DNA of 64,000 nucleotides from Escherichia coli (lineage in GTDB: Bacteria; Pseudomonadota; Gammaproteobacteria; Enterobacterales; Enterobacteriaceae). The stretch lies in NCBI RefSeq assembly GCF_003334255.1, contig NZ_QOWU01000001.1; one strand, given 5' to 3'. Below the pieces are notes generated by a model. That model had not been told where the DNA came from. It saw only the letters and a program-made list of their open reading frames with translations, and did no database searches. Positions 18,601-18,674 of this stretch are shown one piece after another (the stretch's first letter is position 1; the number at the start of each line of letters is the position of its first letter). A program made the position numbers and the translations under genes.

Positions 18601-18603
18601 TGA

Positions 18604-18619
18604 CTGTATAAAACCACAG
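18604..18619. promoter_or_regulatory. LexA (SOS) box CTGT-N8-ACAG upstream of polB
   Basis: ctgtataaaaccacag fits the CTGT-N8-ACAG consensus, located 56 bp upstream of the polB GTG. Confidence 0.8.
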
Positions 18620-18630
18620 CCAATCAAACG

Positions 18631-18660
18631 AAACCAGGCTATACTCAAGCCTGGTTTTTT
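18631..18660 (+). terminator. araBAD rho-independent terminator
   Basis: aaaccaggct-atactca-agcctggt hairpin followed by T6. Confidence 0.8.
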
Positions 18661-18674
18661 GATGGATTTTCAGC

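Follow-up and report, generated by a model that had tools for sequence, protein, structure and literature searches.

The 74-bp gap between araD and polB of Escherichia coli contains a set of overlapping signals, in which the intrinsic terminator of the araBAD operon, a polB promoter that is built into this terminator, and a weak LexA operator are packed together; we assign this reading a probability of about 0.9. The positions of these elements and their conservation are established by the sequence comparisons described below, and the polB start sites and the dependence of polB induction on LexA are established by published data. This cluster of signals at the araD-polB junction is real, compact and already described.

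In the window (the whole stretch of 64,000 nucleotides that was analyzed), the open reading frame list and RefSeq place araD, which encodes L-ribulose-5-phosphate 4-epimerase and is the last gene of araBAD, at 17905..18600 on the + strand, where it ends in a TAA stop codon (18598-18600) that is followed by an in-frame TGA. The same sources place polB (dinA), the gene for DNA polymerase II, at 18675..21026 on the + strand, with a GTG start and 783 codons, and RefSeq annotation of identical DNA likewise shows araD and then polB separated by the same 74-bp gap. When the sequence and open reading frames were read again, the coordinates given by the original prediction for the araD end, the LexA box, the hairpin and the polB GTG at 18675 proved to be exact. 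The araD-polB junction is present in 5374 of the 5426 complete E. coli genomes, and the stretch from 18300 to 19000 is matched by 5401 of them; about half of the complete genomes carry 1-4 base differences from the window over 80 bp of this junction. A comparison of 18300-19000 with Rfam returned no match.

The LexA (SOS) operator of polB/dinA is assigned to the 20-mer GACTGTATAAAACCACAGCC at 18602..18621 on the basis of its sequence, its conservation and the motif list of PMC3009722, which gives the CTGTATAAAACCACAG box as the LexA motif of polB. As had been predicted, a CTGT-N8-ACAG core of 16 bp (CTGTATAAAACCACAG, 18604-18619) is found 3 nt past the araD stop codon. It had also been called a ‘consensus’ SOS box, and this description is overstated: the site satisfies the CTG-N10-CAG core with an AT-rich spacer, but it differs from TACTG(TA)5CAGTA at 7 of 20 positions, and its heterology index (HI) of about 12-13 places it no higher than 6th in the window. 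This rank was obtained by scoring the whole window with a matrix derived from the 15 other published LexA sites in PMC3009722, which gave the polB 20-mer an approximate HI of 12.1 (6th of ~64,000 positions), and the rank fell to 14th when the matrix was symmetrised. The published HI of the polB box is 13, which is among the weakest for classical SOS boxes. This value lies within the accepted range (<15), and by sequence alone the box is not distinguishable from a chance match. In addition, the 64 kb contain 3 copies of the CTGT-N8-ACAG pattern where 0.67 would be expected, and the two other copies, at 9083 and 50028, have GC-rich spacers. Since the score of the polB box is no better than chance, the case for its being real rests on its position, its conservation and published expression data.

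The best LexA-like 20-mer of the window, CGCTGGGAAGATAAACAGTA at 34032-34051, has an approximate HI of 7.3 and thus outscores the polB box. It sits in the 3′ end of the apaH open reading frame (33264-34106, + strand), which is convergent with folA, so it does not occupy a promoter position and is probably a chance match. The observation that a non-promoter sequence outscores the real polB box illustrates how unreliable a score is by itself as a guide to LexA operators.

The N-terminus of PolB was searched against one genome per species, which yielded 80 Enterobacteriaceae loci, 79 of them usable. A CTG-N10-CAG box lies 69-81 nt upstream of the polB start in all 79 usable loci. The distance between araD and polB falls into classes of 73-112 bp (~40 loci), 127-352 bp (~16 loci) and 740-1300 bp (19 loci, with Salmonella and several Citrobacter among them). 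Because the box keeps a fixed distance to polB in every one of these classes, it can be concluded that it travels with polB and not with araD. In an alignment of the 80 sequences (A1), the LexA half-sites CTGTA.A.A....CAG are invariant, as are one G, the hexamer TATA.T and the start codon, and the 11 nt that separate the box from the hairpin are unconserved. The spacing between the box and the −10 hexamer is also constrained, as it is exactly 20 bp in 76 of the 79 loci and 21 bp in two. In Siccibacter turicensis (L081:1425-1500) this spacing is 10 bp, exactly one helical turn shorter, a pattern that points to helical face being important for how LexA acts on polB transcription.

The −10 hexamer of the polB promoter, TATACT, is located in the loop of the terminator (18640..18645, + strand), an assignment that is based on its invariance in A1 and on mapped starts 7-8 nt downstream. 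The hexamer is TATAAT in most species, the invariant columns of A1 being T41, A42, T43, A44 and T46 together with G39, and upstream of it are an invariant G at −14 (18638) and a C at −13 (18639). The transcription start is placed within the 3′ arm of the hairpin, at 18652 on the + strand, by the supplement of Kim et al. (2012; PMC3415461), which reports for E. coli MG1655 that polB transcription begins at minus-strand position 65,803 (2 reads) and that the leader measures 23 nt. The 51-nt upstream string given there is the same as 18602-18652 of the window, so the start corresponds to 18652, 7 nt past the hexamer. A homologous polB start was reported for Klebsiella pneumoniae, 8 nt past TATAAT and with 4 reads (PMC3415461), so that both of these starts have low read counts, and in an independent UV tiling array study the induced polB transcript begins at ~18649 (PMC3009722). 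Therefore, the published transcript mapping, which had been proposed as a check on the location of the promoter, gives starts at 18649-18653 and supports its placement in the araD-polB gap.

A second start assigned to polB, also with a low count of 2 reads, maps within araD at 18509 (MG1655 65,946, minus strand; PMC3415461). It lies 166 nt upstream. As this start is upstream of the entire gap, a transcript that begins there would have to traverse the terminator as well as the LexA box.

Upstream of the −10 hexamer, a search for a TTGACA-like −35 element at polB yielded, as the best candidate, the unconserved hexamer CAGCCA, which was read by hand at 18617..18622 (+ strand), matches at only 3/6 positions and is separated from the −10 hexamer by a 17-bp spacer. 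This weak element takes its first three bases from the LexA box, whose CAG they form, and beyond them it is unconserved (A1 columns 21-32). A consensus promoter scan of 18300-19000 called no σ70 promoter because the polB −35 region is poor, and the invariant G at −14 may compensate for this deficiency. Counted from the start at 18652, the LexA core spans −48 to −33 and overlaps the −35 position. The 5′ leader of polB (UGGUUUUUUGAUGGAUUUUCAGC, 18652..18674, + strand), which is defined by the sequence and by the mapped start, contains a weak Shine-Dalgarno-like GGA at 18664-18666, in which the G at 18664 is nearly invariant. In light of these positions, the proposal that both the operator and the polB promoter share space with the terminator, which did not locate the promoter, is correct for the core promoter, as sequence and mapped starts put the −10 hexamer in the loop and transcription initiation in the 3′ arm. 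The operator, in contrast, ends before the hairpin, from which 11 bp separate it.

The −10 hexamer is polymorphic within E. coli at 18644, with TATACT in the window and in some other strains, and TATAAT, a full match to the consensus, in UPEC132 and FDAARGOS_1058; a linked GA/AT change after the T run, at 18661-18662, accompanies this difference. A C at −13 combined with TATACT is a form of promoter that is preferred by σS. This form agrees with the reported dependence of polB on RpoS, a positive regulator without which polB reportedly does not reach its full expression (Dapa, 2017). The −10 polymorphism may shift the relative use of σ70 and σS.

The hairpin itself, which is assigned as the araBAD intrinsic terminator from its fold and its conservation, occupies 18631..18660 on the + strand and consists of a 9-bp stem, a 9-nt loop and a T6 run. 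The stem arms are AAACCAGGC (18631-18639) and GCCTGGTTT (18649-18657), with 5 G-C pairs, the loop is TATACTCAA, and the T6 run spans 18655-18660. When folded, the 74-nt gap has a predicted energy of −24 kcal/mol (z = −4.9), with 0 of 200 shuffled sequences as stable, and the hairpin segment alone has −16.2 kcal/mol, so the predicted terminator at 18631..18660 is indeed a stable stem with a T6 run. A terminator scan of 18300-19000 called the hairpin on the minus strand only, and the + strand call was missed by one T because the scan counts three of the T's as part of the stem, leaving 4. In A1, 88.6% of cells are paired and measures of covariation are not above those of shuffled alignments, because both arms are almost invariant. 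The Term-seq 3′-end data sets that were consulted, which were obtained in conditions where araBAD is uninduced, contain no 3′ end for araD. Dcm sites are present in both arms (CCAGG at 18634-18638 and CCTGG at 18650-18654), and the second of these spans the polB start.

A comparison across the Enterobacteriaceae relates the integrity of the hairpin to the proximity of araD. With ‘intact’ defined as at least 8/9 pairs and −9 kcal/mol or better, the hairpin is intact in 53 of the 56 loci with araD within 352 bp, versus 7 of the 19 loci with araD at ≥740 bp (Fisher p = 6e-7, a value uncorrected for phylogeny, with roughly six independent losses). In the decayed loci the 3′ arm and the T run are gone, and the 5′ arm and the −10 hexamer are kept. 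This is the outcome expected if the need for a terminator holds the 3′ half of the element in place and the need for a promoter holds the 5′ half. In Phytobacter (L039), a strong terminator is found directly after the araD stop codon and the hairpin proximal to polB is absent. The hairpin has also been lost in two lineages (the L035 and L039 groups) in which an open reading frame on the same strand ends just before the box, so the need for a terminator does not explain every case.

Several other explanations for the arrangement were considered. It has some appeal to suppose that a role as a promoter or other DNA element, such as a protein binding site or a cruciform, is the main reason why the inverted repeat persists, and that termination of araBAD is incidental, since the 5′ arm sequence AACCAGG and the G at −14 are nearly invariant even where the 3′ arm has been lost, the conservation of this arm exceeds that of a usual promoter spacer, and covariation is absent. 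However, the parts that decay once araD is no longer adjacent are precisely the 3′ arm and the T run, the hairpin has the canonical form of an intrinsic terminator and lies 31 nt past the last stop codon of the operon, and a replacement terminator stands right after araD in L039, so we regard this explanation as quite unlikely. Far less credible is the proposal that polB is mainly a distal member of araBAD that is expressed by read-through, with the CTGT-N8-ACAG sequence an inconsequential chance match. The two genes do have the same direction and lie 74 bp apart, and several chance matches in the window score as well as the polB box, but the box and the −10 hexamer keep their distance to polB in the 19 loci with araD at 740-1300 bp, and this distance is equally fixed where araD is not found nearby. 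Furthermore, polB has its own start site, its induction needs LexA cleavage, and a strong hairpin with a T6 run separates it from araD; taken together, these observations make a read-through origin for most polB expression exceedingly improbable.

A different position for the polB promoter was also weighed. The LexA box contains TATAAA (18608-18613), which matches the −10 consensus at 5/6 positions and lies within the operator as in several SOS promoters, so transcription could in principle begin near 18620 and the hairpin could act as an attenuator in the polB leader. This too is very improbable, as the starts mapped in two species and the UV-induced transcript are all downstream of TATAAA, at 18649-18653, and a transcript from near 18620 would include the whole terminator. 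In addition, Salmonella, Citrobacter and many other species carry TACAAA, a poor −10 element, at this site of the box, whereas the TATAAT in the loop is invariant. The use of TATAAA as the −10 hexamer was rejected in view of the start-site data and the TACAAA variants.

The reading in which a terminator, its built-in polB promoter and a weak LexA operator overlap leads to a model for how this region might function, in which we infer that araBAD transcription terminates at the hairpin and that LexA blocks the binding of RNA polymerase to the polB promoter. According to this model, araBAD transcripts would end at the hairpin (18631-18657) plus the T run to 18660, and for polB transcription the 5′ arm would serve as the promoter spacer and the loop as the −10 hexamer, with RNA synthesis initiating at 18652 in the 3′ arm. 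Because the polB start is inside the 3′ arm, the polB mRNA is left without the 5′ arm and is unable to fold into the terminator. LexA bound at −48 to −33, over the poor −35 region, would hinder RNA polymerase binding, and cleavage of LexA after DNA damage would produce a modest induction of polB (about 3-7 fold). The weakness of the box is expected to make repression leaky and induction modest, and the polB leader of 23 nt, with its weak ribosome-binding site ahead of a GTG start codon, fits a low basal level of Pol II.

LexA binding has reportedly been addressed by footprint and ChIP studies, from Iwasaki in 1990/91 and Wade in 2005. The dinA gene is identical to polB and has been shown to be regulated by LexA (Bonner, 1990; Iwasaki, 1990), it appears in every table of the SOS regulon, and Pol II is put at about 50 molecules per cell under basal conditions, with about 7-fold induction of the protein. 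At the mRNA level, polB has been found to increase 4.7-fold with AZT and to show a 3.1-fold dependence on LexA cleavage, as assessed with lexA3.

The geometry of the junction also makes plausible an interplay between read-through from araBAD and SOS control of polB, since araBAD transcription in the presence of arabinose would cross the weak operator and end inside the polB core promoter. Separately, the T6 run, beginning at +3/+4 of the polB transcript, could give UTP-sensitive reiterative transcription like that of pyrBI or codBA. A literature search for arabinose effects on polB found no relevant report, and it seems unlikely that either arabinose-driven transcription (through LexA displacement, occlusion or read-through) or UTP-sensitive slippage at the T6 run has a measurable effect on polB. 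If true, either type of coupling would make a DNA-damage polymerase responsive to carbon source or to nucleotide supply.

There are natural insertions that separate or displace parts of this junction. In E. coli Z1323HEC0462 (L082:2533-3253), an IS200C copy of about 720 bp, with tnpA on the opposite strand, splits the LexA box from the hairpin at a point equivalent to 18628/18629 of the window, and the same junction is found in CFT073. Of the 5 complete genomes that carry this junction, four are assemblies of CFT073. As this insertion moves the operator about 0.7 kb from the polB −10 hexamer, altered or lost SOS control of polB is predicted in the uropathogenic strain CFT073. Across Enterobacteriaceae lineages, the space between araD and polB has taken up at least 3 different small genes: an open reading frame of about 130-160 aa on the opposite strand (L009, L014, L006, L007, L010, L012, L020 and L023), one of about 210 aa with a weak ElyC/DUF218-like match (L018, L021, L039, L043, L046 and L066), and one of about 170 aa (L035, L044, L047 and L078). 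All of these small-gene insertions are upstream of the LexA box and leave the unit from the box to polB intact. The site just past the araD stop codon looks like a recurrent insertion point.

This arrangement illustrates how densely bacterial signals can be packed, as one 30-bp hairpin both closes an operon and supplies the next gene with its core promoter. A second lesson is that a LexA score at the level of noise can still mean a conserved, working operator. As a textbook LexA target from 1990 onward, polB/dinA offers nothing new here for SOS biology, and both the cross-species footprint and the placement of promoter elements in the loop and 3′ arm are confirmations and not discoveries.

The original polB papers of 1990-91 are said to have already remarked on an SOS box close to the −35 region and on araD as the neighboring gene. 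The system analyzed here is the same locus as the known E. coli polB (dinA) promoter-operator, with a sequence identical to the MG1655 string in PMC3415461; relative to the polB (dinA) literature, what has been worked out here is the footprint across 80 loci and the placement of the −10 hexamer in the loop and of the start in the 3′ arm. In common with canonical LexA boxes, such as those of recA, umuDC, sulA and dinB, the polB box has the CTG-N10-CAG core, an AT-rich left half (CTGTATAAAA), an overlap with a promoter and induction that depends on LexA cleavage. Unlike canonical boxes, it has a degenerate right half (ACCACAGCC), its HI is about 12-13 compared with 2-9 for most LexA boxes, and it is situated upstream, centered at about −40.5, whereas canonical boxes lie over the −10 hexamer or the start. 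This weakness and upstream position fit a high basal level and a modest induction.

The T run at the beginning of the polB transcript and the terminator to which it belongs can each be compared to other systems as well. In pyrBI, codBA and upp, a T run just after the start site leads to UTP-sensitive reiterative transcription, as known from Turnbough's work. The polB transcript, which begins (U)GGUUUUUUGA, resembles these in having a T run from +3/+4, but unlike them its T run is accounted for by the role in termination, so the resemblance is only a lead. Like other intrinsic terminators, the araBAD hairpin has a G+C-rich stem and a T run and is found just after the last stop codon of its operon, and an upstream AAA can pair with the first T's, as in terminators with an A-tract and a T-tract. 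Unlike the usual intrinsic terminator, it has a 9-nt loop of constant length and a downstream promoter that fires within its 3′ arm, and the length of the loop is constant apparently because the loop houses the polB −10 hexamer.
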